Below, one piece after another: positions 4,434 through 18,452 of a stretch of 64,000 nt of DNA. Each line of letters starts with the position of its first letter. The first letter of the stretch is position 1. The position numbers were made by a program, and so were the translations under genes. Source of the stretch: a bacterium (GTDB taxonomy: Bacteria; Patescibacteriota; Patescibacteriia; JAHIZJ01); NCBI GenBank assembly GCA_030699685.1, contig JAUYLJ010000054.1:309-64308 (forward strand), written 5' to 3'. The notes beneath the pieces were generated by a model. That model was not told the DNA's origin. It saw only the letters and a list, made by a program, of their open reading frames with translations, and did no database searches.

Positions 4434-4467
4434 ATAAAAAAAGCGTGTCACTTTTCTTCTGCCACGC
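4434..4467 (-). terminator. putative terminator of the copper operon (AAGCGTG...CACGCTT stem, T7 tract)
   Basis: 7-bp stem overlapping the copZ stop, followed by TTTTTTT on the minus strand; the loop is long (~15 nt). Confidence 0.45.
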
Positions 4468-4684
4468 TTGCCGTGTAGTCCAGTTTTTGTATTTCAGCAA
4501 TAATCGCATCGAGACTTTGCTGTCCAGGATCATAGGCTACGATAGTGGTAGATTTCGCGTAGCTTGTTTCACTTTGGATAACTCCTTCAAGATCCTCTAG
4601 GGCTCCGTCAATATTCATGGCGCAGCTCACGCAATGCATTCCCTGAATGTTCAGCTTCACTCGTTGTTCGTTTGTGTGTTCCAT
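4448..4684 (-). CDS. copZ: copper chaperone CopZ (HMA domain, GMHCVSCA)
   Basis: 78 aa with the MxCxxC heavy-metal-associated motif. Confidence 0.85.
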   Translation of the reverse strand: MEHTNEQRVKLNIQGMHCVSCAMNIDGALEDLEGVIQSETSYAKSTTIVAYDPGQQSLDAIIAEIQKLDYTASVAEEK

Positions 4685-4700
4685 AGATTAATCCAATATT

Positions 4701-5768
4701 TTATATAACCTCGAAGGTTCCCGTGTACATTCCCATCGAACAAGCGAATACATATTGCCCCTTCTTGGTTGGGGTAAAACGGAATGTTTCGCTGTCGGTT
4801 GGTTCCAACAACGCATAGATGCCAAATTGCCGGAAAGTGAAAGCGGAAGCGCAGCTATAAACGTCATTTGTTTCCACGGTGAGCTCTACCGGCACTCCGG
4901 CTTTAACTTTGATACGATTTGGTTTGTATCCATAATCCTGTACTTCAATATGTACTTTTTGGATCTCGGCTATGCTGATATCGGGACTGGAAAAATTCAC
5001 CTCTTCGCCATTGGATGAAGCGGATCCATTCGCGGAAAAAGCCAGCTGTATCCGCTGCCAGGAAATTGGCGCGTCCACTGCTTGCAAAACTCCGTTGAAG
5101 CTGTAGAGGGACATTCCCACCAACAGCAAGGCGGCAAATTTCAAAAATTTCACTTGCAACGATTCACTAAGTTTCGCCGTGGCAATGCCGATAAACCCGA
5201 AAATCGGCGCCGTGCCCAGCACGAAAACCATCATAATCAGCGCTCCCGTGATCGGATTTCCGCTGTTGATCGCCAGGACTTCCATGGCCTGGGTCACCCC
5301 GCAGGGAATAAAAACAGTGAAAACCCCGAGGATGGTCGGCGCGAAGAACGATGACGCCTTGCTGGATTGTCGCACCTTTCTTTGGATAAATTTCGGCGGT
5401 TGAAAAGCCACGAAACGGAAGATCGGGTGGACGTTGAAAAGATTAAGCGCCGTGGTCAGCATAAAGGCGGCGGCCAAAACCTGGAAAAAAATTTTCACGC
5501 CAAAACTGAGGGTGAAAACCGATCCCAAAGCTCCCAAAAGGAAACCAAGTATGCCGTGGACTACGAGTTTTGACCCCAGAAACATGACCACCGGCAGCCA
5601 GTCGCCCTTGTCAAAAGAACGAGACGCCAATTCCGGTGAATCGGGGCTGTCCCGAAAATCCTTTCGTTTTTGATTGGCGATAATGGACGCCAACAATCCT
5701 CCCTGAACGGCCAAGCACGCCAACCCGCCGGTTGTCAGGCCAGTCAGAAAAACAACCCAAAGGTTCAT
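4701..5768 (-). CDS. membrane permease (TauE/SafE-like) fused to a C-terminal cupredoxin-like metal-binding domain
   Basis: N-terminal [17 protein letters not shown] helix motif and multiple TMs; C-terminal ~90 aa beta-sandwich with Cys/Met/His (YSCASAF...[10 protein letters not shown]). Confidence 0.5.
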
Positions 5769-7972
5769 TGTTTTTGCAAGTTAACTTTTTTAAGTCTTAG
5801 CGCGTTTGCCACCACGGAAACGCTTGATAGCGCCATAGCCAGGCTGGCCAGCATGGGATTGAGCTGAGTGCCGGTCAGCGGATACAAGACGCCCATGGCC
5901 ACCGGTATCAAAATGATGTTATAGCTAAATGCCCAGACAAGGTTCTGGCGAATGTTACGCATGGTCGCTTTGGCCAAGGTGATGGACTGGGGAATCAGTG
6001 AAATATCACCTCGCAACAGCGTTATTCCGGCTGTTTCCATGGCGACATCCGTACCTTCTCCCATGGCGATTCCCACGTCAGCCACCGCCAAGGCCGGCGC
6101 GTCATTGATCCCGTCACCGGACATGGCTACGACATTCCCTTTCGATTGAGAATCTTTGATCCAGGCGGCTTTTTCTTCCGGTGAGACGCGGGCTCTCCAG
6201 GTCGTGATGGAAACGGTATTGGCGATCGCTTCAGCTGTTTTTTTATTGTCACCCGTGAGCATCACTGGCTCAATGCCCATCTGACTTAGCCTGGCAACCG
6301 CCGAAGCCGATTTTTCTTTTACCTGATCAAATACGGCGATATACCCCAAATATCTATTTTCTTCAGAAAGTAGCAAGACGCTTTCCCCGAGCGATTCATG
6401 TTCCGTTATCTTTCTCTGCTGTTCTTCAGTGATCTTTCCGTCATGTTGGAGAATAAAATCCAGAGTGCCGAGGCGATATTCTTTTCCCTTGATTGTGCCC
6501 AAGACACCTTTGCCCGACTCCGCGTGAAACGATTCAACGGGCTGAAGCGATAGTTTCATCGCATTTGTCTTTTGTATCACGGCTCCTGCCAGAGGGTGTT
6601 CTGATTGTTGCTCGAGGGAAGCGGCCAGGATCAATACCTCATCGGAAGAGTACGAATTAACCGCGGGTTTTCCTTCCGTCAGCGTGCCGGTTTTATCCAA
6701 CACCACTTGCGTTATGGCTTGAGACCGCTCAAGCGACTCCGCGTTGCGTATCAGGATGCCTTTTTTAGCTCCCCGGCCGATTCCCACGGTGAGCGAGGTG
6801 GGCGTGGCTAGGCCCAGGGCGCAGGGACAGGCGATAATCAAGACGGAAATCATACTAACCAGCGCGCGCGGCAGGCTCGGCTCTGGTCCAAAAATAATCC
6901 AGGCGATAAACGTAATTATCGACAGCGCTATCACGATTGGGACGAAATAGGACGAAATAGTGTCTACGAGTTTTTGGATTGGAGGTCGCGAACCTTGAGC
7001 CTCGCGAACCATTTGGACAATCCGTGAAAGTTTGGTGTTTTCCCCGACTACCGTCGCTCGCATTTCAAACGATCCTGAGGAATTCATCGTCGCCGCGAAG
7101 ACCGCGTCAGATGGCTTTTTTTCTACCGGGATACTTTCTCCCGTTAACATGCTTTCATCTACGGAACTGCCCCCCTTGAATACTATGCCGTCAACGGGAA
7201 TTTTTTCTCCAGGCTTTACCAATATTTCATCGCCAATCATTACGTTTTCGACTGGCTGATCTTGCCATTCTCCGTTTTTTCTGACATGGGCGATAGTTGG
7301 CTGGAGTTCTAATAATTCTTTGATGGCGGCGGAGGCCTGTCCCTTGGCCCTGGTTTCCAGGTATTTTCCCAATAATATTAATGTCAGAATAGTGGCCGAA
7401 GTTTCAAAGTACACGTACTGAGGAAGGCCCGAGTCTCCCAAACTGCCGGAAAAAACCGCGACAACAAGGGAGTAGCCATATGCCACCGAAGTTCCCAGGG
7501 CGACCAGGGTGTCCATATTGGTCGTTTTATTTTTCGCGGCCGACCAGGCGCTTAAGTAAAAATCCTTTCCCAGCCAGAATTGAATTGGAGTGGCCAAGGC
7601 CAGCATGAAGAGGGGATTGGCCATAAACGCGGGAGCGGCCGGGACCATAGCGGCAAAAAGAAGAACGGCTGACAAAATTATTCCGACAAATAATTTTCGC
7701 CGAAGCGAGTTCAGCCGGATAGCGTGATCATGTTCCATGGTCGAGTCGGTATCGCCGTGATCAATATGCGCTTTGTAGCCAAGCTTCCCCACAATATCGG
7801 CAATGCCGTCTGTTTTAATGGCTTTTGAGTCGTACGTGACATGGGCGTGTTCATTGCCATAATTTACCGTTGCTTGCGAAATGCCGTCTGCTTTTAACAA
7901 CTTTCTTTGTATATTGGCAGCGCAGGAGGCGCAATGCATTCCCGAAACGTAGAAATTAATTTTTTCAGACAT
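5765..7972 (-). CDS. copA: copper-translocating P-type ATPase CopA
   Basis: HMA domain [11 protein letters not shown] motif ([13 protein letters not shown]), [15 protein letters not shown]; start taken at MSEKINF, overlapping the regulator stop by 8 nt. Confidence 0.9.
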
Positions 7973-8441
7973 ATTTTTTCGGATGAAGAATAAAATTCTT
8001 TCGGCAGCCTGAAGCGCAAAAGTAGTAGGTAGTGCGTTTATACTCATGGGTAAAGACCGCGTGACGTGGTGAAACTGACATACCGCAAACTGGATCGGTA
8101 ATTTTTGGCACGGATGGAGCACTCAGCTTATGGCGCAAAGGCCGAATGCTTTTTCTATCAGAAAGAACCTCATGGATATTCTCCAGCAGTTTAATGAATG
8201 TCGGATGCGCGAGACGATATAATTTTTCTTTGCCTTGGCGCTTTGTTACCACTATCCCGTTTCTTCGCAAAACCTGAAGATGCTGGCTCACGTTCGACTG
8301 CGACATTCCAGACATGTGGATAAGTTCAGTGACGGTCACTGAGGTATCGCACAAAATACGCAATATCTCAATGCGTTTTTGATTAGCGAGCGCTTTCAAC
8401 AGCCGTGTGTATTGTTGGTACGTTGAAGAAGACATATTCAA
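7965..8441 (-). CDS. ArsR/SmtB-family metalloregulator with C-terminal YHS/TRASH copper-binding domain
   Basis: wHTH ...[12 protein letters not shown]...[18 protein letters not shown]...; C-terminal DPVCGM...YYFCASGCR (TRASH/YHS); TTG or ATG (8435) start. Confidence 0.75.
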
Positions 8442-8492: not shown

Positions 8493-8900
8493 CTAAGTGA
8501 AATCCAAGATCAAACCAATTAGCAACGCCAATCCCGAAGTAATAAAGATAAACACGTAGTTCCACTTCTCACGAGTTGTCTTCAGCGTGCGCAAAATGTA
8601 TCCGAGGGAAGCTTTGTCGTCTTCTGAGAGCTGGGTCAGACTGGAAACTTTTTCATCGAGTTTCTGCTCACGAATCAACCGAGCGCGTTTCTCGGAAATC
8701 TGATAGCGATGGATGAAGTAGATGATAAAGCCGATGGTACCGATATACCAGGAAATCGTCACCCAATACGCGCTATAGTTGTTAAGTACGATTATGATAC
8801 GGTAAGCGAGGGTGGCGATGATGCCGGCCCAGAAATAGAAGAGTCGGATGAATTTTGGATGGGCTTTGGGTTCGGGCATGACGAATAGTATAGTTAACAA
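8493..8900 (-). CDS. hypothetical membrane protein
   Basis: 135 aa, 3-4 predicted TM helices. Confidence 0.4.
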   Translation of the reverse strand: MLTILFVMPEPKAHPKFIRLFYFWAGIIATLAYRIIIVLNNYSAYWVTISWYIGTIGFIIYFIHRYQISEKRARLIREQKLDEKVSSLTQLSEDDKASLGYILRTLKTTREKWNYVFIFITSGLALLIGLILDFT

Positions 8901-9035: not shown

Positions 9036-9917
9036 ATGATGCTGTCAAAACACCCAGTCAACGGCCCAGACCGGCCAACCCGCCGTGTCAACAGCCGGAT
9101 AATGATCCGGGGGATGCTTGATCTGATCCGCTGGTTCAGTCTGTCGGGAATGGCGCTGCTTGCCTTGGTCAGCCTTCGTCTGGCTGGCCACTCTCCGTCC
9201 TCTGCCTGGTCAATCTACTTTGTCAGCGGCATCATCGTGGTAGCCGCCGCGGGATACGTCTGGAATGACTACCTTGATTACCGGATTGACGCAATCAACA
9301 AGCCTTCCCGTCCGCTGGTTCAGGGACTGATCAGCCTGCGTTTCGCCCGGACGATAGCCATTCTTTTGGGAGCGATTGGGTTGGTGCTGTATGTTCAACT
9401 CGGCATTTTTTTCTTCCTCTACAGTCTCTTTGTCGTGGTCGTACTGGCATTCTACAGCCGGGCGCTGAAAGACCGGCATGGAGTAATCGGTAATCTGGCC
9501 GTGGCGTTGCTGCTGGCCAGTATCCCGCTCACCGTCGGGGCCAAGCACGGCTGGACCCTGCCTTTGGCTGTTCTGGCCGGAGTTACGTTCTGTCTGGGCT
9601 TTGCCCACGAAGTGATGAAGGATGCGGAAGACGTGCCCGGTGACCGGAGGGGCGGAAGAAAAACTCTCGCCACCCACTACTCGCGCCTCGCCTTGGAAGG
9701 GGCGATCTCAACATCTCTGGCCTTCACGCTGGCGATTGGCCTCGTGCCGCTTGCTTTGGGATCGGCTCAATCGAAGCTCCTCGTTATTCCTGAAACAATG
9801 CTCGTAGCCAGCTTTGTCTTTTGGAAATTCGGAGGAATGAGGGATGCCGTATTTCGTCACCTGCTCAAGCTTAACGCTTTTGCCTACGTTATTGCCTATT
9901 TCATCGCCGGAGGGTGA
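9036..9917 (+). CDS. UbiA-family prenyltransferase (DGGGP synthase-like)
   Basis: NDYLDYRID (NDxxDxxxD) Mg-binding motif, 8-9 TM helices, second Asp-rich region HEVMKDAEDVPGD. Confidence 0.75.
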   Translation: MMLSKHPVNGPDRPTRRVNSRIMIRGMLDLIRWFSLSGMALLALVSLRLAGHSPSSAWSIYFVSGIIVVAAAGYVWNDYLDYRIDAINKPSRPLVQGLISLRFARTIAILLGAIGLVLYVQLGIFFFLYSLFVVVVLAFYSRALKDRHGVIGNLAVALLLASIPLTVGAKHGWTLPLAVLAGVTFCLGFAHEVMKDAEDVPGDRRGGRKTLATHYSRLALEGAISTSLAFTLAIGLVPLALGSAQSKLLVIPETMLVASFVFWKFGGMRDAVFRHLLKLNAFAYVIAYFIAGG

Positions 9918-10705
9918 CGATGGACAATGTGTGGAATTATCTTGAGCAACGAATCAGGGAATACGGTTGCGGTTTTCTGGCGATTGTTGACCCTGACAAG
10001 TATGTACTGTCGGATCTTTCCCGACTGTGCCGGGCGTTGAGAGCCGCAAACGTTGATGGGGTGCTGGTCGGAGGCACGATTCTAAAAAAAGGTCACGAGC
10101 ACTACGGTAAGATTGTGCTCGCATTGCGCCAGGGGTTGCCGGACGCGCCTGTCATTATCTTCCCTGGCGGTTCGGGCATGTACCGGTCATTGGTGCCGGG
10201 CGCGGACGCTATCTTCTTTCGTCAGCTGATCAGCGGGACGAACCGGAAGTATCTCTACACAGAACAATGCCTGGCTGGTATAAGGGCGAAACGGATGGGA
10301 ATCGAAGCAATCGCGGTGGGATACGTGTTTGTGCGTTCGCGGGCCATTCAAAGAGCGGCGGACATTACCAATACAACCCCGGTGCGTGAAGCAGACACGG
10401 AACGTGCCGTTGGGCTAGCAATACTCTCGGAGTCGACAGGAAAGCGCCTCATTTGGTTCGAGCGGGGAAGCAACGCCGAAGCACCTGTTCCCGAGCCGTT
10501 TATCAAAACCGTCTCGGCCCATCCCTTGGTGGAACTACCCATCATGGTTAGCGGCGGACTTCGCACTGCGGAAAATGTTCGAGCAGTGGTGCGCGCCGGT
10601 GCCAGGCTGACGGGAGTGGGAACGGTGATTGAACAAAGCAAGGATATTGAAGCTACGCTTAGTCCCTTGGTAAGTGCCGCTCATTGGCGCGCGTCGTCGG
10701 CTTGA
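9914..10705 (+). CDS. geranylgeranylglyceryl-/heptaprenylglyceryl-phosphate synthase family (GGGPS/PcrB)
   Basis: FLAIVDPDK, VLVGGT, IFPGG and MVSGGLRTAENV motifs match the PcrB/GGGPS TIM-barrel family; start overlaps the UbiA stop (ATGA). Confidence 0.7.
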   Translation: MTMDNVWNYLEQRIREYGCGFLAIVDPDKYVLSDLSRLCRALRAANVDGVLVGGTILKKGHEHYGKIVLALRQGLPDAPVIIFPGGSGMYRSLVPGADAIFFRQLISGTNRKYLYTEQCLAGIRAKRMGIEAIAVGYVFVRSRAIQRAADITNTTPVREADTERAVGLAILSESTGKRLIWFERGSNAEAPVPEPFIKTVSAHPLVELPIMVSGGLRTAENVRAVVRAGARLTGVGTVIEQSKDIEATLSPLVSAAHWRASSA

Positions 10706-11064: not shown

Positions 11065-11337
11065 ATGATGGTGAACTGGAAGAAAAAAGTATATGTGGCG
11101 TTTTCTATCCTCTTGGGCATACTGCTTAGTCTATTGGCGCACGCTGGTATCGAAGCACTCTACTTGGGCTGGGCCGATGCAAACAATCAAGTAGTGACAT
11201 GGTACGGGGGCTGCTCTCTTCATCCCTTCATTCAGGCCGCAATCTTTGTTCTTGGAGCGGTGGGGGGATTCTTCCTGGGACTGTGGTGGTGGCGGATAGT
11301 CTACATTGAGAAGCGGCATTGGCATAAAAACAAATAA
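11065..11337 (+). CDS. hypothetical small membrane protein
   Basis: 90 aa, two hydrophobic helices. Confidence 0.3.
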   Translation: MMVNWKKKVYVAFSILLGILLSLLAHAGIEALYLGWADANNQVVTWYGGCSLHPFIQAAIFVLGAVGGFFLGLWWWRIVYIEKRHWHKNK

Positions 11338-12920: not shown

Positions 12921-13343
12921 ATGAAAGAAAGAAATTTCAAAACGGGAATAGCAGTACTGGTTATAGCATTTCTTGCCTATTCTGTTGTTGGATACTTAGG
13001 CATGAGTCTTACTCACCACTCGCAAGATAATGGGATGTGCCCGCTGGCGCCATTTTTGAATCAATCATGCGGCGTCACCGATATCGCCTCTGCTACAGGA
13101 TTACATCACTTGCTTGGTGGCAAGGCTTTTTTTCAATCCTGGCTCAGTTTTACCACAATCCTGATTGCTGCCGTACTGATGGTGCTTTCTTTCGCGGTCA
13201 TTAGCTCGACTGGGAACAGGCAGGTGGGAAGTTCTTGGTTTTTTTATTTCCAGCATTTCAAGTCGCAATTCAGACGGAAAGCCAATAAAAACTTTCTTCG
13301 CTGGTTAGTTCGAATACAATACGAATCTGCAGCTCCGATATGA
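12921..13343 (+). CDS. hypothetical membrane protein with Cys motifs (MCP...SCG)
   Basis: 140 aa, N-terminal and central TM helices, His/Cys-containing loop THHSQDNGMCPLAPFLNQSCG. Confidence 0.4.
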   Translation: MKERNFKTGIAVLVIAFLAYSVVGYLGMSLTHHSQDNGMCPLAPFLNQSCGVTDIASATGLHHLLGGKAFFQSWLSFTTILIAAVLMVLSFAVISSTGNRQVGSSWFFYFQHFKSQFRRKANKNFLRWLVRIQYESAAPI

Positions 13344-13420: not shown

Positions 13421-13948
13421 TTGTATTTAACAAATCACATCATTATGAAAAAATTGCTTAATAAATACTTCTGGACCAGCGTGGTAGTCACTGTTGTAGT
13501 CTTACTGCTCATTGTGGCGGGCAATAGCGGTCAGGCTGGCCAGCAATCTACCACCGCGGGAGTGCTCACGGTTGCCGAAGCAATGCATGATTTCGGGACT
13601 ATCTCGATGCAAAACGGTACAGTCAGTTATCAGTATGAATTGGTGAACACGGGAACAGAAGCCGTGGTGATACAAGAGGCATATACCTCCTGCATGTGCA
13701 CGACCGCCACGATCATTGACTCGAAAGGAGAGCGTCATGGTGTTTTTGGCATGACGGGGCACGGTCTTCAGCGCAAGGCATCAATCGAAGTTCCGCCGGG
13801 AAAGTCCGTCACCGTTGAAGCGGTGTTCGATCCTGCCGCCCACGGGCCCAGCGGTGTCGGGACTATTGAGCGCACTGTCACGGTGGAAACAAACTCTGAA
13901 TCAGCGTCCGAAGTCAATCTGGACTTCCGCGCAACGGTAACGCGATAA
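13421..13948 (+). CDS. DUF1573 domain protein (secreted/anchored beta-sandwich)
   Basis: N-terminal TM/signal; HDFGTISMQNGTVSYQYELVNTGTEAVVIQEAYTSCMCT matches the DUF1573 core. Confidence 0.55.
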   Translation: MYLTNHIIMKKLLNKYFWTSVVVTVVVLLLIVAGNSGQAGQQSTTAGVLTVAEAMHDFGTISMQNGTVSYQYELVNTGTEAVVIQEAYTSCMCTTATIIDSKGERHGVFGMTGHGLQRKASIEVPPGKSVTVEAVFDPAAHGPSGVGTIERTVTVETNSESASEVNLDFRATVTR

Positions 13949-13950
13949 CA

Positions 13951-14862
13951 ATGGATATATTACTTACCGCCTCCATTCTCGCGGCGTTTCTAGCCGGAGC
14001 GGTGGCGCTCTTTGCTCCCTGCTGCATTACCGTGTTGCTGCCCGCGTACATGGCTTCCGCCTTTCGGCAAAAGCAGAACATGCTTCGGATGACTTTCGTG
14101 TTTTTTGCGGGCATTTCGGTTATCCTGGTGCCGATCGGAATGGGAGCAGCCGGGCTCGCGGCGGTGTTTGAAAATTACCATCGCGAACTCTACATCATCG
14201 GCGGCAGTCTGATGATTGTCTTTGCCGTGATGTCGGTTCTCGGAAAAGGTGTTAGTTTGCTTCCGTCGGTGAAACAAGCTCCAAAAAACCTGAACAAAAT
14301 GGGAGTGAAATCTGTCTTTGTTCTGGGAATATTTTCCGGTGCGGCCACTTCCTGCTGCGCGCCGGTTCTGGCTGGGGCGATGACGCTGGCTGTTATTTCA
14401 GGAGTATTCTGGAAAGGGGTGATAGTAACCTTTGCCTACGTGTTCGGAATGACGCTTCCGCTCTTTTTGACGGCGTATTTCTACGACCGTTTCCGGATCG
14501 AAAAATCTAAGCTGATCAGGGGAAAAATCTTCGAGTGGCGTATTGGCGGAAAACAGCTCTATGTCCACTCCACTAATCTCTTCTCAGGCTTCATTTTCGC
14601 GCTGATGGGCATAGCGTTGCTGGCCGTTGCGCTTTCCGGCAATCCTTTCTGGGCACCTGAGTATCAAGTGGCCATTGGGGAAAACATCACGGAATGGTCG
14701 AAAGGACTATTCACGGCACTGAGCGTTATTCCCGATATCGTTTGGGGGGCTATCGTGATCGGGCTTTTTATCCTGTTTCTCGTGACGGCTCTCAGAAAAG
14801 GTCCGGCATCCTCAAAAGAAAAGACTGAGGATACGCCATCCTGCTGCCGTGATTCATCATGA
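13951..14862 (+). CDS. CcdA/DsbD(SoxV)-like polytopic membrane protein with two vicinal Cys-Cys motifs
   Basis: FAPCCITVLLP in TM1 and ATSCCAPVLAG in a later TM, resembling the paired Cys-in-TM architecture of DsbD/CcdA (DsbD_2-like). Confidence 0.45.
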   Translation: MDILLTASILAAFLAGAVALFAPCCITVLLPAYMASAFRQKQNMLRMTFVFFAGISVILVPIGMGAAGLAAVFENYHRELYIIGGSLMIVFAVMSVLGKGVSLLPSVKQAPKNLNKMGVKSVFVLGIFSGAATSCCAPVLAGAMTLAVISGVFWKGVIVTFAYVFGMTLPLFLTAYFYDRFRIEKSKLIRGKIFEWRIGGKQLYVHSTNLFSGFIFALMGIALLAVALSGNPFWAPEYQVAIGENITEWSKGLFTALSVIPDIVWGAIVIGLFILFLVTALRKGPASSKEKTEDTPSCCRDSS

Positions 14863-15551
14863 AATTAACCACTAAGAAAAAAACCATGAGTAAGTACAAC
14901 GCATTCAATATCGTCGTGGCGAGCGTGTTAACGCTTGTGTTCGCGTTCAATCAGTCGCAGATAAGCATCATCCACACGTTCATGCATCCAGCGGACGCCG
15001 AGGCCAGCCAAGATTCCGCCGTCGAAACTGAAAAAAAGCCTTTGGCGGTTTCCAGTGGACTGGTTGAAGAAGCGATTGCGGCGGCTGTTCCTACCGGCAC
15101 GCCGTCTGTCGAGGGTTCGCAAGGGGTAATTAATTACGGTGCCGAACTAAAGATCAGCTATGATCAGGCGGCTCAGACGATTCCCGTGTTGGCTCCGCAC
15201 GAGCAGGATACCCGGACAGAAAAACTGACTGGCGAACTTCTGGAAAGATACGTTGATGTGGGGAGTAAAACCAGCTGCGAGTACTGCTGCGGCGCCCGGA
15301 CTATGGTGTTCCCTGACGGAAAAAAAGCCTGTGGCTGCGCTCATTCGGCAGCAATGAGAGGCCTGGCCGCCTATTTGCTCGATAATTATGGAGACCAACT
15401 GAGTACTGAGCAGATACTTGAAGAAGTCAACAAAGTTAAAGCAACGTATTTTCCCCGTCAGTCGGCAGAAAAGGTAATAGCCGCTTCACAGGGAGGATCG
15501 ATTGACACATCAGTATTAAATTCGCTTTCGCCCCAGGTCGGGGGCTGTTAA
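14859..15551 (+). CDS. signal-anchored Cys-rich protein ending in -SPQVGGC-COOH
   Basis: N-terminal basic stretch plus TM; CEYCCGARTMVFPDGKKACGC cluster; last residues QVGGC then stop; start overlaps the upstream stop. Confidence 0.5.
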   Translation: MKLTTKKKTMSKYNAFNIVVASVLTLVFAFNQSQISIIHTFMHPADAEASQDSAVETEKKPLAVSSGLVEEAIAAAVPTGTPSVEGSQGVINYGAELKISYDQAAQTIPVLAPHEQDTRTEKLTGELLERYVDVGSKTSCEYCCGARTMVFPDGKKACGCAHSAAMRGLAAYLLDNYGDQLSTEQILEEVNKVKATYFPRQSAEKVIAASQGGSIDTSVLNSLSPQVGGC

Positions 15552-15592
15552 CAAGCAAAGGTTCGAATAATAATCACAATTAACGCACAACA

Positions 15593-15910
15593 ATGACTGA
15601 CCAAAAACATTTTTGCACGAAGGTTCATCTTGATGACATTCTCCATCAGGAACAGCTCGAAAAAAAAGAAGAGCAAAAACGGAAATTTCGCTGGGATACC
15701 AATAGTATTCTTTCCGGCGTTATGGCCGTCCTGCTGGTAGTGAGTTTGGTTCAGGCGGTTCAGCTGTCCCGAGTTAAAAACATAGTATCGGCGCAGGAAA
15801 CTAATGCAGTAACCAAGGTCGCGCCGTCAGCAAACGCGGGCCAACAGCCAACCGCGCCTTCTTCAGCCAGCGGAACTAAGGCTTTGCCGGCACAAGTAGG
15901 GGGATGTTAA
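15593..15910 (+). CDS. small signal-anchored protein ending in -PAQVGGC-COOH (paralogous C-terminus)
   Basis: 105 aa, single TM, Ala/Ser/Pro-rich tail ending QVGGC then stop, identical to the C-terminus of the preceding gene. Confidence 0.5.
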   Translation: MTDQKHFCTKVHLDDILHQEQLEKKEEQKRKFRWDTNSILSGVMAVLLVVSLVQAVQLSRVKNIVSAQETNAVTKVAPSANAGQQPTAPSSASGTKALPAQVGGC

Positions 15911-16497
15911 GGATGGGCAAAGAAAGAATACTCAGCTGGGTGCTTGTGGTGTTGGCCCTTGCTAGCCTTCTCTGGACCGTCATAAGCTTTATCAATAGCC
16001 CCTCGGACGCAAAAAGTTTTTCCGGCGAAGAGGAGGACTTTGCCCGGGCGCTTGCCGACGAACTGCCAGACAAGTGTCAGACGCCTGAAGGCTACACCGA
16101 TGAAGAATGGCTCGAGCACATGGGCCATCATCCAGATCGTTATCAAGAATGCCTCAATGTTGCGGAAGCTGACGCGGCGGATCCAGGGTACCAGACGATA
16201 TCGGCGGATGATCTTGCCGCCATGATGCCATACAAGGATTTCACCATGATTGACGTCCATGTACCGGAACAGAAGCATATCTCGGGAACGGATGCTGTCA
16301 TACCGTATGACGATATTGCCGGCTACATCGACGAGCTCCCCAGCAATAAAAACGCGAAGATACTGTTATATTGCCGTTCGGGCAGCATGAGCGCCCAGGC
16401 GGCGGAAACTCTCGCTCAGATGGGATACACGAATGTCGCGCACTTGGCCGGAGGAACGAACGCATGGACTAATGCCGGCTATGAACTTGAGGACTAA
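15904..16497 (+). CDS. membrane-anchored rhodanese-domain sulfurtransferase
   Basis: N-terminal TM anchor; C-terminal rhodanese fold with active-site loop LYCRSGSMS and AHLAGG. Confidence 0.75.
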   Translation: MLRMGKERILSWVLVVLALASLLWTVISFINSPSDAKSFSGEEEDFARALADELPDKCQTPEGYTDEEWLEHMGHHPDRYQECLNVAEADAADPGYQTISADDLAAMMPYKDFTMIDVHVPEQKHISGTDAVIPYDDIAGYIDELPSNKNAKILLYCRSGSMSAQAAETLAQMGYTNVAHLAGGTNAWTNAGYELED

Positions 16498-16500
16498 GAA

Positions 16501-16998
16501 GTGATGATTTTTTCCGAAACAAGTCGTCGGAATGTGCCCGCGCGGTCTGTAGCGTGGGGTTCGGTGGCCGCGACAGTATTGTTCGGGCTATTCGCCGGAA
16601 TAGTCAGACTGGCTGAAGGAAACTGGCAGGCGGTGAGGATTCAGCTGGAGGATAACGGCGCATTCATCGTGTTACTGGCACTGGGTTTCGGCGTCCAACT
16701 TGGCCTGTGGTACTATCTGAAAACGGTTCGGAAAAGCCAGTCTGGAAAATACAACAGACTGGCTTCCGGGGCGGGCGCTTCTTCCACCACTTCCATGCTC
16801 GCGTGCTGCAGCCATTATCTCGTTAACGTGTTTCCTTGGCTGGGACTGGCCAGTGTCAGCGCGCAATTTATGCAGTACCAGAGGGAAATTTTGCTGATAG
16901 GAATCAGTATTAATCTCCTCGGTATTGCCTATATGCTTCGACATGTCTCACACTATCACCAGTCTATAAAAGCTTGTCCGAAGATTGAGTCAGCGTGA
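16501..16998 (+). CDS. hypothetical membrane protein with intramembrane Cys-Cys motif (LACCSHY)
   Basis: 165 aa, 4 TM helices, vicinal CC in a helix; last gene of the plus-strand block. Confidence 0.4.
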   Translation: MMIFSETSRRNVPARSVAWGSVAATVLFGLFAGIVRLAEGNWQAVRIQLEDNGAFIVLLALGFGVQLGLWYYLKTVRKSQSGKYNRLASGAGASSTTSMLACCSHYLVNVFPWLGLASVSAQFMQYQREILLIGISINLLGIAYMLRHVSHYHQSIKACPKIESA

Positions 16999-17002
16999 TG
17001 GG

Positions 17003-18295
17003 TTACGCTTCTCTCAAATAGCCCCAGGTATGCAATTTGTCGTTATCTTCGTACCAGCGGTCGCCGATATCCATGCGATAGTACATATTGGGAATCAGTA
17101 TATTCTGAATGCGGTTGTAGGCTTGTTGCTGGGCCTGTTTCATCGTGGTGCCCGTACCGGCGACAATTAATGCCACTCCCGCCGATCCTGTCACAACCCA
17201 TTGATCGTTGGTGAGTTTGACGTCTTCAATATGGATCCCCTCAAGGTTCTTTTTCTTGAAAACCACCGTCGCTCCCTTGGAATACGAATCAAAGGTTTTT
17301 TTATCACGATAGGGGAAAGGCGGAACCACGACGCGAATGCCTATTTGAAAGCCCTTTTTCACCTTCAGGTGAGGGTCGCGTCCATAGGCCAGATCGGCCA
17401 AGAACTCACCGATCGGAGTGATCATCCCTTCTTGCTGAACACTGATGGTCGGATAGCCGAAGCGAGGGGTGAACTCAAGGGGATAAATTCCATTGCCATT
17501 GACGATGCAGTTAAGATCGACATACCCCACGAAGCGCTCTTCGGCCAGCTTACTCTCCATCTTCCCGATCGTTTGATTGAAGAGCCGGTTTGGACCCGAC
17601 CAGAACATCGTCGCTCCCATGTCGCCAGTCGATGGGCCGAGGTTTCCCGGAAACAGCTTCTTAAATTCAAAATTTACGTTGATGGGCTGAACAAACTGCT
17701 TGCCGTTAAAGAATGCTCCTACAGCGATCTCTACGCCGCTCACCCGCTTCTGGATCTGGAAGACTTTTATATGACTACTCCAAACGCGCTTATACGCTTC
17801 TAGGACGCGGATGACATCGCTGCCATCTTCTTCTTGGCCGACAAAAAGGAGCCGTTTGATATTTTGTGCCTCGCCGCTAGGCTTGATAACGTATTTTTCC
17901 GGATGTTCGTGGACGTAACGAATGGCGTCATCAAAGTTCGTAAATTCTTGATAGGAAAGGATGGGAATGCCAAAGCGTTTGAGCTCTTCCTGCCCGAAAG
18001 ACCGGTCTTCTTCAAGTCTGTCAGTGTAAGGTGTGCCGCCGATTACCGCTTTTCCTTGCCGGCGAAGTTTGTCTGCTTTGACCCCCATCCCCAGCGTGTC
18101 GTCAAAGATGATTACATCAGCCCAGTCGACCCGCTTTCGCCAGTCGTCAGTTTTCGGCACGAAACCGTCGGCAATGTCCGCTTCCAGCTTATTCTCAATA
18201 TCATACAGGACGTCGTGGCCCTCTTTATGCGCCTGCCAGGCGATATCGCCGATCAGTCCGTCGTCGGAAACGAAAAGAAATTTGATGGGTTTCAT
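17003..18295 (-). CDS. ATP-grasp enzyme, PurD (phosphoribosylamine-glycine ligase)-like
   Basis: ~430 aa with PurD-like domain order, YVIKPSGEAQ nucleotide-binding strand and C-terminal PurD_C-like region; start taken at MKPIKF (ATG 18295). Confidence 0.55.
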   Translation of the reverse strand: MKPIKFLFVSDDGLIGDIAWQAHKEGHDVLYDIENKLEADIADGFVPKTDDWRKRVDWADVIIFDDTLGMGVKADKLRRQGKAVIGGTPYTDRLEEDRSFGQEELKRFGIPILSYQEFTNFDDAIRYVHEHPEKYVIKPSGEAQNIKRLLFVGQEEDGSDVIRVLEAYKRVWSSHIKVFQIQKRVSGVEIAVGAFFNGKQFVQPINVNFEFKKLFPGNLGPSTGDMGATMFWSGPNRLFNQTIGKMESKLAEERFVGYVDLNCIVNGNGIYPLEFTPRFGYPTISVQQEGMITPIGEFLADLAYGRDPHLKVKKGFQIGIRVVVPPFPYRDKKTFDSYSKGATVVFKKKNLEGIHIEDVKLTNDQWVVTGSAGVALIVAGTGTTMKQAQQQAYNRIQNILIPNMYYRMDIGDRWYEDNDKLHTWGYLREA

Positions 18296-18452
18296 GGCAA
18301 TGAAGTAATACAAAACAAAACCACTGGCGATGATTCGGTGTTTTGTTTAAATTCGTCTGTCATTAATATTGATACTGTTCCCACAGTATACAGCAATCGC
18401 TTATTGAATACCATACTTGTGCGTCCATCATTCCGACGCTATACTTCACCGT

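Follow-up and report, generated by a model that had tools for sequence, protein, structure and literature searches.

A shared Gly-Gly-Cys terminus in paired membrane-anchored proteins of CPR bacteria and DPANN archaea: candidate extracytoplasmic cysteine arms in a copper and thiol-redox gene neighbourhood

Two adjacent genes in a 64,000-nucleotide stretch of a Patescibacteriota contig (assembly GCA_030699685.1, contig JAUYLJ010000054.1, positions 309 to 64,308; hereafter, the window) raise the question of why two different proteins should end in the same pentapeptide, QVGGC, directly before the stop codon. A preliminary description, made from the letters alone, had pointed out this pair, and its observation was confirmed: (i) ORF 14859–15551 (+) encodes 230 aa ending in LSPQVGGC, and ORF 15593–15910 (+) encodes 105 aa ending in LPAQVGGC; (ii) these two are the only ORFs of the window that end in GGC; and (iii) when the 355 window ORFs of at least 50 aa were compared, QVGGC was the sole terminal 5-mer, and VGGC the sole terminal 4-mer, common to any two of them. 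The shared end is real and far from chance. The frameshift or assembly artefact envisaged in the preliminary description is excluded because the same two proteins are found in a second, independent Logan assembly (L087) of this locus, and a recent DNA duplication of the tails is excluded because 3 of the 5 codons differ (CAG GTC GGG GGC TGT versus CAA GTA GGG GGA TGT). NCBI and an independent gene call place the start of the larger gene at 14886, which gives 221 aa; the choice between 14886 and 14859 has no effect on the tail finding. We designate the two products the large and small partners.

The large partner consists of an N-in TM anchor with a juxtamembrane NQSQI, a linker, an extracytoplasmic core, a short arm, and the tail. 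The core, predicted to be mostly helical (AF2 model, mean pLDDT 91.5), contains an invariant Cys cluster, and the same model places the tail with a pLDDT of about 92. The small partner has a cytoplasmic N-terminus with His and Cys and a single TM helix ending in VQAVQL, which is followed by about 40 flexible residues of low-complexity Ala/Ser/Pro/Gln linker and then by LPAQVGGC. Charge bias assigns the N-in/C-out topology to both. The two proteins had been said to differ throughout except for this topology and the tail; both common features hold, but the difference is less complete than was claimed, since in both proteins the TM helix also ends in a juxtamembrane (N)Q-x-x-Q-[LI] motif. The features of the locus are listed in Table 1.

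Table 1. Coordinates of the paired genes, their motifs, and the neighbouring genes in the window
Feature	Position	Strand	Remarks
Copper genes	4448..8122	-	5-8 kb upstream
HMA protein	4448-4684	-	
DsbD_2-cupredoxin fusion	4701-5768	-	C...CSMGM motif
P1B-1 Cu(I) ATPase	5765-8122	-	Motifs CPC / YNx4P / Mx2SS
Membrane protein with HH...C...C...HH segment	12921..13343	+	First gene of the same-strand cluster
Anchored DUF1573 Ig-like protein	13445..13948	+	CxC motif (SCMC)
CcdA/DsbD_TM-type membrane protein	13951..14862	+	Vicinal Cys in APCC and TSCCAP; C-terminal SCC
Large partner	14886..15551	+	221 aa, or 230 aa from start 14859
CxxCC motif (CEYCC) of large partner	15276..15290	+	3/3 Cys invariant in 116 homologues
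CGCAHS motif of large partner	15330..15347	+	Both Cys and the His invariant
Tail LSPQVGGC and TAA stop of large partner	15525..15551	+	
Small partner ("bare arm")	15593..15910	+	105 aa
Tail LPAQVGGC and TAA stop of small partner	15884..15910	+	
Anchored C-tP-GYt-W-eHmsHHPD-Y-CL module and PspE/GlpE-type rhodanese	15913..16497	+	Rhodanese motif CRSGSMS
g7, four-helix membrane protein	16504..16998	+	Invariant CC-x-H in third helix (MLACCSHY)

Relatives are encoded in 425 species genomes of CPR and DPANN. Alignment of orthologues, which the preliminary description had suggested as a check on the C-terminus, placed GGC at the very end in 110 of 120 database homologues of the large protein; extensions beyond the Cys, which were to count against the idea, occur in 3 of the 120 and amount to one extra residue each (GGCS, GGCS, and GGCK), and 4 have G[NQR]C at the tail. 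The tail consensus of the family is [L][P]x[QM]VGGC, with Gly at -3 and Cys at -1 in 184/184 sequences of a set that was itself retained because its members end in G-x-C. The Gly-Gly-Cys end, proposed earlier as functional, is under functional constraint: its Cys does not vary between bacteria and archaea and is almost always the last residue. Likewise, the CxxCC...CGC cluster, regarded earlier as a candidate for a metal or Fe-S site, proved to be an invariant CxxCC...CGC(A)H, which fits a metal or redox centre. Two large ORFs lack the terminal Cys; that of L033 is a likely frameshift and that of L081 a genuinely tail-less paralogue, and we found no evidence for selenocysteine at the terminal position. 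In L081, a bare-arm gene directly follows the tail-less core, so that the arm is supplied in trans.

Neither protein has a sequence match to Pfam, NCBIfam, or PDB, no Pfam match recurs among 116 large homologues even at E<=1, and a literature search for QVGGC/MVGGC returned nothing relevant. Judged by sequence, the pair belongs to no described family. A word-indexed whole-sequence search with the small partner returned only itself, and its family was recovered by gene context next to the large gene instead. The small partner adjoins the large gene in 68 of the 74 loci with an intact large ORF, and in some loci two or three small partners accompany one large partner. Members of the small family are built from a TM helix, an 18–68-aa low-complexity linker of Ala/Ser/Gly/Gln/Pro, and [Q/M]VGGC; in all of 71 small partners, the terminal Cys is the sole Cys after the TM helix. 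Across CPR bacteria and DPANN archaea, the large and small genes are conserved together as a two-gene module.

The two tails vary together. They are identical within a genome in 65 of 71 pairs, where shuffling gives an expectation of 35, and rare variants are common to both partners (QQGGC/QQGGC in L039 and MAGGC/MAGGC in L059). The same codon is used at tail positions with the same residue at a frequency of 0.48 between partners and 0.33 between non-partners. Because partner codons match at only 48% of these positions, selection on the peptide maintains the tails, and gene conversion as a general cause of their identity was rejected; L059, in which both tails are identical at the DNA level, is an exception. 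The mutual information between tail and core gave weak signals that are inseparable from phylogeny. A metagenome scan bore out the specificity of the tail: besides a few unclassified matches of 40–63 aa, it gave 55 matches classified as sizeable ORFs, of which 54 are large or small partners, and the remaining one is a Tyw1-like enzyme judged to be a chance match. The tail is essentially confined to the two families.

The preliminary description had missed that the pair sits inside a copper and thiol-redox gene neighbourhood. The CcdA-type gene lies directly upstream of the large gene and is probably translationally coupled to it. A DsbD-superfamily membrane protein is encoded in 63 of 80 related loci (26 of the 32 loci with full flanks), DUF1573 in 58 of the 80, and a thioredoxin-like (repeat) protein in 36–37 of the 80, with none in the window operon. 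A selenoprotein form of DUF1573 has UGC at the CxC motif (PMC9312934). The C-tP...HHPD module, which contains two Cys plus H..HH, is found in 33/80 related loci, mostly in a small gene of its own, and a rhodanese in 11/80; the module-rhodanese fusion of the window recurs in L010 and L059. An exhaustive HMMER search showed g7 to belong to a family of 692 representative clusters. Of its longer relatives, 10 were tested; 7 of these carry a fused HMA domain and 2 a fused YHS domain. Whether the 12921–13343 gene belongs to the system is uncertain; its protein has no relative in the 80 loci (Phmmer and jackhmmer), and an L001 protein similar to it recurs in only 3 loci. No Pfam family was found for the C-tP...HHPD module or for window genes 12921–13343, 8493–8900, and 11065–11337.

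M48/M56-type membrane proteases are encoded in 36 of the 80 related loci; the M56 proteases pair with BlaI-type repressors and are therefore taken to be sensors. The regulators near related loci are CsoR-family, BlaI-type, or DUF7343 proteins, and BlaI/BlaR1-type regulators, which are common in these loci, are absent from the window. The CsoR-family neighbours have metal-type fingerprints (x-C-H-C and H-C-H-H), not those of the two-Cys persulfide-sensor type. A CopA-type ATPase lies within 6 kb in 26/80 related loci and in 15/32 with full flanks, against our own estimate of about 1–2% for a single-copy gene in a genome of about 1 Mb. The copper and thiol-redox neighbourhood therefore favours Cu(I) or thiol exchange over sulfur oxidation.

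We tentatively prefer, at rather less than even confidence, to regard the pair as cysteine swinging arms outside the cytoplasm, with Cu(I) or another soft metal as the relayed cargo. The large protein would display its CxxCC...CxC-H domain outside the cell and end in a short arm, and the small protein would be a bare arm in which some 40 flexible residues join a TM anchor to a single thiol. Both arms share [LP]x[Q/M]VGGC-COOH and therefore should dock into the same partner site. The terminal thiolate would take up and pass on the metal by ligand exchange, on the membrane side with the vicinal-Cys sites of g7 (CC-x-H), of the CC-type CcdA, and possibly of the exit of the Cu(I) ATPase, and on the other side with the Cys cluster of the large protein. 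The DsbD/CcdA-family and thioredoxin-like proteins would keep the exposed arm thiols reduced. The analysis directly shows conservation, pairing, tail co-variation, charge-bias topology, gene neighbourhood, and domain fusions; that the arms bind metal, which way it is transferred, and which partner they dock with are inferences.

A swinging arm fits the near-invariant, strictly terminal tail and a small partner reduced to an anchor, a flexible linker, and one Cys. A soft metal as the cargo is suggested by the HMA/YHS fusions of g7, the P1B-1 ATPase, the CxMxM cupredoxin, the CopA genes nearby, and the CsoR fingerprints. In addition, 10% of large and 24% of small partners have cytoplasmic N-termini with CC/CxxC or at least 3 His, and some arms contain Met/His inserts, such as GETYEQMMARMHPDQ; these residues look like metal ligands. 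Thiol maintenance is suggested by the frequent DsbD-superfamily and thioredoxin-like genes.

Two known systems offer partial parallels for metal transfer. The Mer relay, which comprises MerP/MerT/MerF, NmerA, and the C-terminal Cys pair of MerA, passes a soft metal from cysteine to cysteine by ligand exchange; its sites are HMA domains, vicinal Cys pairs within TM helices, and a C-terminal cysteine arm that is flexible. Similarly, one TM helix of g7 contains an invariant CC, HMA fusions are frequent in the g7 family, the CcdA-type protein has its APCC and TSCCAP motifs, and the window encodes an HMA protein. Unlike in Mer, the pair is linked to a Cu(I)-type ATPase; no protein homologous to MerT or MerF was detected, MerA, MerB, and MerR are not encoded nearby, and the recurrent neighbours included no recognisable flavoprotein disulfide reductase. 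The second parallel is CupA of Streptococcus pneumoniae, a membrane-anchored cupredoxin Cu(I) chaperone that faces the cytoplasm and works with the P1B-1 ATPase CopA. The C...CxMxM motif of the neighbouring DsbD_2-cupredoxin protein is CupA-like, whereas the paired proteins are directed outwards and have no sequence in common with CupA.

Several points weigh against Cu(I) as the cargo: (i) extracytoplasmic Cu(I) sites in oxic organisms usually consist of Met and His, not Cys; (ii) the alternation of Gln and Met at -5 does not look like that of a conserved metal ligand; (iii) thiol-redox genes are at least as frequent as copper genes, and more than half of the loci have no copper gene within 6 kb; (iv) copper could be the mere inducing stress of a thiol-repair system; and (v) one relative carries an FKBP-type prolyl isomerase fused to the core, a hint of a link to protein folding.

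The main rival, which we consider possible but doubtful, is that the arms are thiol-disulfide shuttles whose terminal Cys would carry reducing equivalents rather than metal. Mixed or inter-arm disulfides would be reduced by the CcdA/DsbD-type protein, and electrons would pass to the Cys-cluster core, DUF1573, and thioredoxin-like proteins, much as cysteines at the C-terminus act as shuttles in ribonucleotide reductase or MsrA. A parallel is the Scs system (ScsB/ScsC/ScsD) and CueP of Salmonella, where Cu(I)-binding thiol proteins receive reductant from a DsbD-like membrane protein (PMC10907172; PMC8900818). By analogy with Scs, copper might be only the stress that makes repair necessary, and the DsbD_TM protein in the operon and the copper-linked envelope thiol setting are similar. 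The Scs proteins have a thioredoxin fold with CxxC and reside in the periplasm of a Gram-negative cell, whereas the present system has a single terminal Cys on tethered arms, a new Cys-cluster domain, and hosts without an outer membrane.

A resemblance of the large protein to CcmH would help the shuttle. It was not reproduced by Foldseek or by hhalign (probability 1%), no Pfam model matches (CcmH included), and the CcmH motif LRCxxC is absent, the large partner having SCEYCC; ccm genes and c-type cytochromes were not recognised among the recurrent neighbour families inspected. CcmH identity by sequence was rejected, and the resemblance is kept as a weak, fold-level lead. In addition, the CcdA/DsbD partners known so far are thioredoxin folds, not linear peptides, and metal handling, more than electron transfer, is what the fusion of g7 to HMA and YHS domains, the CC/His-rich cytoplasmic N-termini, and the vicinal CC motifs indicate.

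It is improbable that the arms are sulfane-sulfur carriers in the manner of SoxY or DsrC, with persulfide or polysulfide held on the terminal Cys and loaded by the adjacent extracytoplasmic rhodanese. The rhodanese fused in the next window gene, and again in L010 and L059, speaks for this possibility, but a rhodanese is missing from most loci. SoxY is a soluble Ig-like β-sandwich with a GGCGG end. Its single reactive Cys, adjacent to Gly-Gly, sits on a mobile, extracytoplasmic C-terminal peptide that is offered to several partners (PMC5336275), and the Gly-Gly-Cys arm resembles this carrier arm. The SoxY-like swinging arm suggested in the preliminary description therefore survives in its anatomy, that is, a reactive-type Cys on an extracytoplasmic C-terminal arm, with a low-complexity linker in the small partner, but not in its family. 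Unlike SoxY, which works with SoxZ and the Sox enzymes, the paired proteins are membrane-anchored, have a predicted mostly helical core, and end in GGC with the Cys as the last residue. No SoxY domain was found in either protein (Pfam and NCBIfam) or in the 116 homologues at E<=1; no SoxZ, SoxAX, or SoxB gene occurs in the window operon, and neither these nor Dsr or sulfide-oxidation genes occur among the recurrent neighbour families inspected in the 80 loci. We regard the pair as analogous to SoxY and not as a member of its family. The nearby CsoR-family regulators are likewise of the metal type, not the persulfide-sensor type, and CPR and DPANN are not known as lithotrophic sulfur oxidisers. 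Ubiquitin-like sulfur carriers, which the preliminary description already doubted, are excluded: ThiS, MoaD, and CysO are cytoplasmic β-grasp proteins with a Gly-Gly end and an E1-like partner, whereas the pair shares none of these features, having a mostly helical model, a Cys end, and a TM anchor with the C-terminus outside, and no ThiF/MoeB-type neighbour was seen in the window operon or among the recurrent neighbours.

Slightly less probable still is a purely covalent coupling, in which a permanent, non-catalytic inter-chain disulfide ties the small partner to the large one or to another surface component. One Cys per arm and matching tails within a genome would suit such a bond, and the shared juxtamembrane Q-x-x-Q-[LI] could pair the two TM helices; however, a structural disulfide needs neither an invariant eight-residue recognition peptide nor a free carboxylate end, one large partner is accompanied by two or three small ones in some loci, and the neighbourhood is built around reductant-exporting proteins.

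The lipobox pattern is [LVI][ASTVI][GAS]C, which (M)VGGC fits loosely, and M48/M56-type proteases are frequent nearby; nevertheless, it is very unlikely that the tail is a modification or sorting signal, with its Cys lipidated, ligated to the envelope, or processed, as had been proposed, because a lipobox Cys follows an N-terminal hydrophobic region whereas VGGC ends a hydrophilic linker at the extreme C-terminus, the LPXTG, PEP-CTERM, PGF-CTERM, and GlyGly-CTERM signals differ in that here the Cys is the last residue with no TM segment or basic tail beyond it, true sorting signals decorate many different proteins whereas this tail is limited to two families, the recurrent neighbours included neither a recognisable transferase nor a sortase, and the M56 proteases are marked as sensors by their BlaI-type partners.

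Beyond the cargo of the arms, it is possible, though doubtful, that the small partner is an encoded, membrane-tethered single thiol that replaces a low-molecular-weight thiol and that, together with the large partner, the CC-type CcdA, and g7, it constitutes a previously unrecognised extracytoplasmic carrier system. The arm would then be a "fishing line" cast beyond the membrane by cells that lack a periplasm and in which soluble thiol buffer is probably scarce, and Cu(I) and/or reducing equivalents would be moved on co-evolving terminal-cysteine arms common to CPR and DPANN. A large part of microbial diversity belongs to these two groups, and for most of the surface proteins conserved in them no function has been assigned. 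The module described here is compact and present in at least 425 species genomes, with a clear chemical handle, a partner that is nearly the handle only, and defined companion genes. If the arms carry Cu(I) or reducing equivalents, they would represent a new way for cells without a periplasm to achieve metal and thiol homeostasis, and roles would be given to the large core, the small arm, the 692 representative clusters of g7, the CQTP-HHPD module, and perhaps DUF1573.

The preliminary description reported QVGGC directly before the stop codon of two adjacent ORFs, and the coordinates, the translations, and the uniqueness of this ending in the window bear it out. NCBI and an independent gene call place the start of the large gene at 14886, giving a protein of 221 residues. 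Only these two ORFs end in GGC in the 64-kb window, and QVGGC is the sole terminal pentapeptide common to any two of the 355 window ORFs of at least 50 residues. The codons of the two tails differ at 3 of the 5 positions, and the same two proteins are encoded in a separate Logan assembly (locus L087). Assembly error and fresh DNA duplication can thus be dismissed as the origin of the shared ending, and the Logan copy rules out a frameshift, initially considered as a source of the shared stop context.

Positions of the QVGGC operon and other features in the window
Feature	Position	Strand	Remarks
HMA protein, DsbD_2-cupredoxin fusion, CopA	4448-8122	-	Upstream of the operon
UbiA-family prenyltransferase	9036-9917	+	Overlaps the next gene
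PcrB/GGGP-synthase-family gene	9914-10705	+	
Operon gene 1	12921		Membrane protein
Operon gene 2	13445		DUF1573 with CxC motif
Operon gene 3	13951		CcdA/DsbD_TM with vicinal CC pairs
Operon gene 4, large partner	14859-15551	+	230 aa, ends ...LSPQVGGC
Operon gene 5, small partner	15593-15910	+	105 aa, ends ...LPAQVGGC
Operon gene 6	15913		CQTP-HHPD module fused to rhodanese
Operon gene 7, g7	16504		Four-helix membrane protein, invariant CC-x-H
PurD-like ATP-grasp protein	17003-18313	-	118 bits (equivalog cut-off 288); convergent with the operon end

The search with the large protein matched 309 clusters, which belong to CPR bacteria (Buchananbacteria, Kerfeldbacteria, and others) and DPANN archaea, and a relative was present in 425 genomes when each species was represented by a single genome. 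Among the best 120 of the 309 clusters, 110 end in GGC, mostly as ...LPSQVGGC or ...LPDMVGGC; 4 end in G[NQR]C, and the C-terminal extension found in 3 is a single residue beyond the cysteine. In 184 large proteins, kept because they end in G-x-C, the tails share the pattern [L][P]x[Q/M]VGGC as their consensus, with Gly at -3 invariant, Val at -4 in 179, and Gly at -2 in 176. Alignment of 116 homologues revealed 5 invariant core cysteines and 1 histidine, arranged as CxxCC ... CxC-x-H. Neither protein matched Pfam or NCBIfam, no recurrent Pfam signal appeared among the 116 homologues even at E<=1, and the large-family profile had no match in the PDB. In 3 Hydrothermarchaeota loci (L021, L022, and L028), the large protein has lost the second glycine and terminates in MVG[RDS]C, and there is no small partner closer than 1.5 kb to the large gene. 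In a Desulfobacterales MAG (locus L084, 5062-6477), an N-terminal leader, an FKBP-type prolyl isomerase (Pfam FKBP_C, E 2e-12), the core, and an MVGGC tail form one fusion without a small partner.

The 105-aa small protein is orphan-like by whole-sequence search. At every related locus inspected, however, a small gene built like it adjoins the large gene. Small partners have a variable N-terminus, one transmembrane helix, a low-complexity linker, and a terminal [Q/M]VGGC. The large ORF is intact in 74 of the 80 genome loci, with at least 1 small partner within 1.5 kb in 68 of the 74 and 2 or 3 at some loci. The terminal cysteine is the only one after the helix in each of the 71 small partners, and the stretch from helix to tail comprises 18-68 residues (median 40) rich in Ala, Ser, Gly, Gln, and Pro. 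In both families, Lys and Arg are commoner before than after the helix, which indicates an N-in/C-out topology. The pair had been described as alike in topology and tail, which stands, and as differing throughout otherwise, which does not fully hold, since a juxtamembrane (N)Q-x-x-Q-[LI] motif is also common to the two families. In effect, the large protein stripped of its globular core would be the small one. Within 76-1542, locus L081 encodes a 412-aa large paralogue without the VGGC tail (ending ...LLEAQV) and, directly after it, a tail-bearing small partner (1333-1542), as though the tail-less core received its arm in trans; the locus also carries a normal large gene with 2 small partners. 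Among large partners 10%, and among small partners 24%, have CC/CxxC or at least 3 His in the cytoplasmic N-terminus. Some small-partner arms have Met/His inserts, e.g., GETYEQMMARMHPDQ, which are similar to the W-eHmsHHPD motif found in the separate CQTP-HHPD module; such inserts ('GETYEQMMARMHPDQV' and 'GWTxNExMNYEMHGTIPAR') occur in loci L008, L056, L067, and L077 and in L055 and L074.

The last 5 residues are identical in 65 of the 71 large/small pairs, against 35 expected from partner shuffling, and rare tails are matched within a genome (QQGGC on both proteins in L039 and MAGGC on both in L059). Same-residue tail positions share a codon in 48% of cases between partners and in 33% between non-partners. 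Because partners share just 48%, selection at the peptide level, not recent gene conversion, in general keeps the tails alike; the exception is L059, where the two tails have the same DNA sequence. Most simply, both tails would be read by one common binding site. In 86 related loci, the tail is carried by large and small partners only. When metagenomes were scanned with a degenerate P-x-Q-V-G-G-C-stop pattern, 130 matches emerged, including 15 large partners, 39 small partners, and 6 cut by contig ends; the other 70 were nearly all wrong-frame ORFs of a few residues, with a handful of unclassified products of 40-63 aa. The one long exception, a 323-aa Tyw1-like enzyme, was judged coincidental. 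Many unrelated proteins would be expected to carry a general sorting or modification signal, and the confinement of the tail to two families thus argues against the processing or lipidation signal proposed earlier. Many contigs from soil metagenomes (L100, L104, L123, L132, and many others) repeatedly encode the very short peptides 'MQKPTQVGGC' and 'MRQRLQKPTQVGGC', which probably come from a conserved stretch of DNA translated in an unrelated frame.

Genes 2-7 of the operon keep the window's order in L059. Neighbours were counted by simple ORF calling within 6-kb flanks, in all 80 loci and in the 32 with full flanks. DsbD-superfamily membrane proteins of three subtypes occur at 63 loci (26 of the 32), DUF1573 at 58, g7 at 38 (20), thioredoxin-like repeat proteins at 36-37 (17), the CQTP-HHPD module at 33 (18), CopA-type ATPases at 26 (15), and rhodanese at 11 (5). 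BlaI-type repressors were counted at 44 of the 80, in a cluster contaminated by some antisense ORFs, and BlaR1-type M56/M48 membrane proteases at 36. The two are paired in about half of the loci (L029, L040, L042, L053, L080, and others), and the window has no such pair. Predicted outer (extracytoplasmic) loops of the proteases bear CGC or GC..GC motifs, and the proteases may therefore be thiol or metal stress sensors. Elsewhere in the window, the UbiA/PcrB pair is reminiscent of ether-lipid synthesis, in an apparent CPR bacterium, and the PurD-like product is a divergent GARS-like enzyme.

The motifs CPC / YNx4P / Mx2SS give the window CopA the signature of a P1B-1 Cu(I) ATPase, and C...CSMGM stands at the end of the cupredoxin domain. 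CsoR-family neighbours carry metal-type ligand fingerprints; regulators of the H-C-H-H (RcnR-like) pattern lie directly upstream of the QVGGC operon in L007, L009, and L010, and the x-C-H-C (CsoR-like) type adjoins CopA. The g7 family comprises 692 representative clusters, and no Pfam or PDB relative was found. Among 10 longer members tested, 7 are fused to HMA and 2 to YHS, both of which are soft-metal binding modules; like the MerT/MerP-type thiolate relay, g7 pairs vicinal cysteines in a transmembrane helix with HMA. Many g7 proteins (P0133, P0135, P0208, P0246, and ORFs in L020, L056, and L067) have a C-terminal extracytoplasmic domain with the signature '...GDPxGGHHRxG.L.F...ER.F.W', which no Pfam model matched. 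A 28-residue g7 segment (query residues 48-75) matched 24 separate stretches of the 4538-aa P0124, which is probably repetitive and has nothing to do with the system.

The two genes form a conserved module whose invariant, co-varying, strictly terminal cysteine tails face outward amid thiol-redox and Cu(I) genes. We infer that the terminal thiolate is both reactive and mobile. In the leading mechanism, which we favor tentatively, it would exchange Cu(I) or a soft metal between the membrane CC sites and the Cys-cluster core, and DsbD/CcdA and thioredoxin-like proteins would hold the arm thiols reduced. The main rival, possible though doubtful, is that the arms shuttle reducing equivalents and that copper is merely the inducing stress, for which the Scs system is a precedent (PMC10907172); the occurrence of UGC at the DUF1573 motif in its selenoprotein form (PMC9312934) and the FKBP fusion in one relative speak for it. 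A sulfane-sulfur carrier, to which the rhodanese link in a minority of loci is the sole pointer, is improbable, a purely structural disulfide slightly more so, and a C-terminal modification signal, given the confinement of the tail, highly improbable.

SoxY, DsrC, and the C-terminus of MerA already exemplify the principle of a swinging-arm cysteine, and neither the motif nor either family is described in the literature searched or in Pfam/NCBIfam models. What is new is the architecture, in which two membrane-tethered arms form a pair, each with Cys-COOH at its end, and one of the two is a bare arm; this architecture might conceivably represent a new class of tethered-thiol carrier system.
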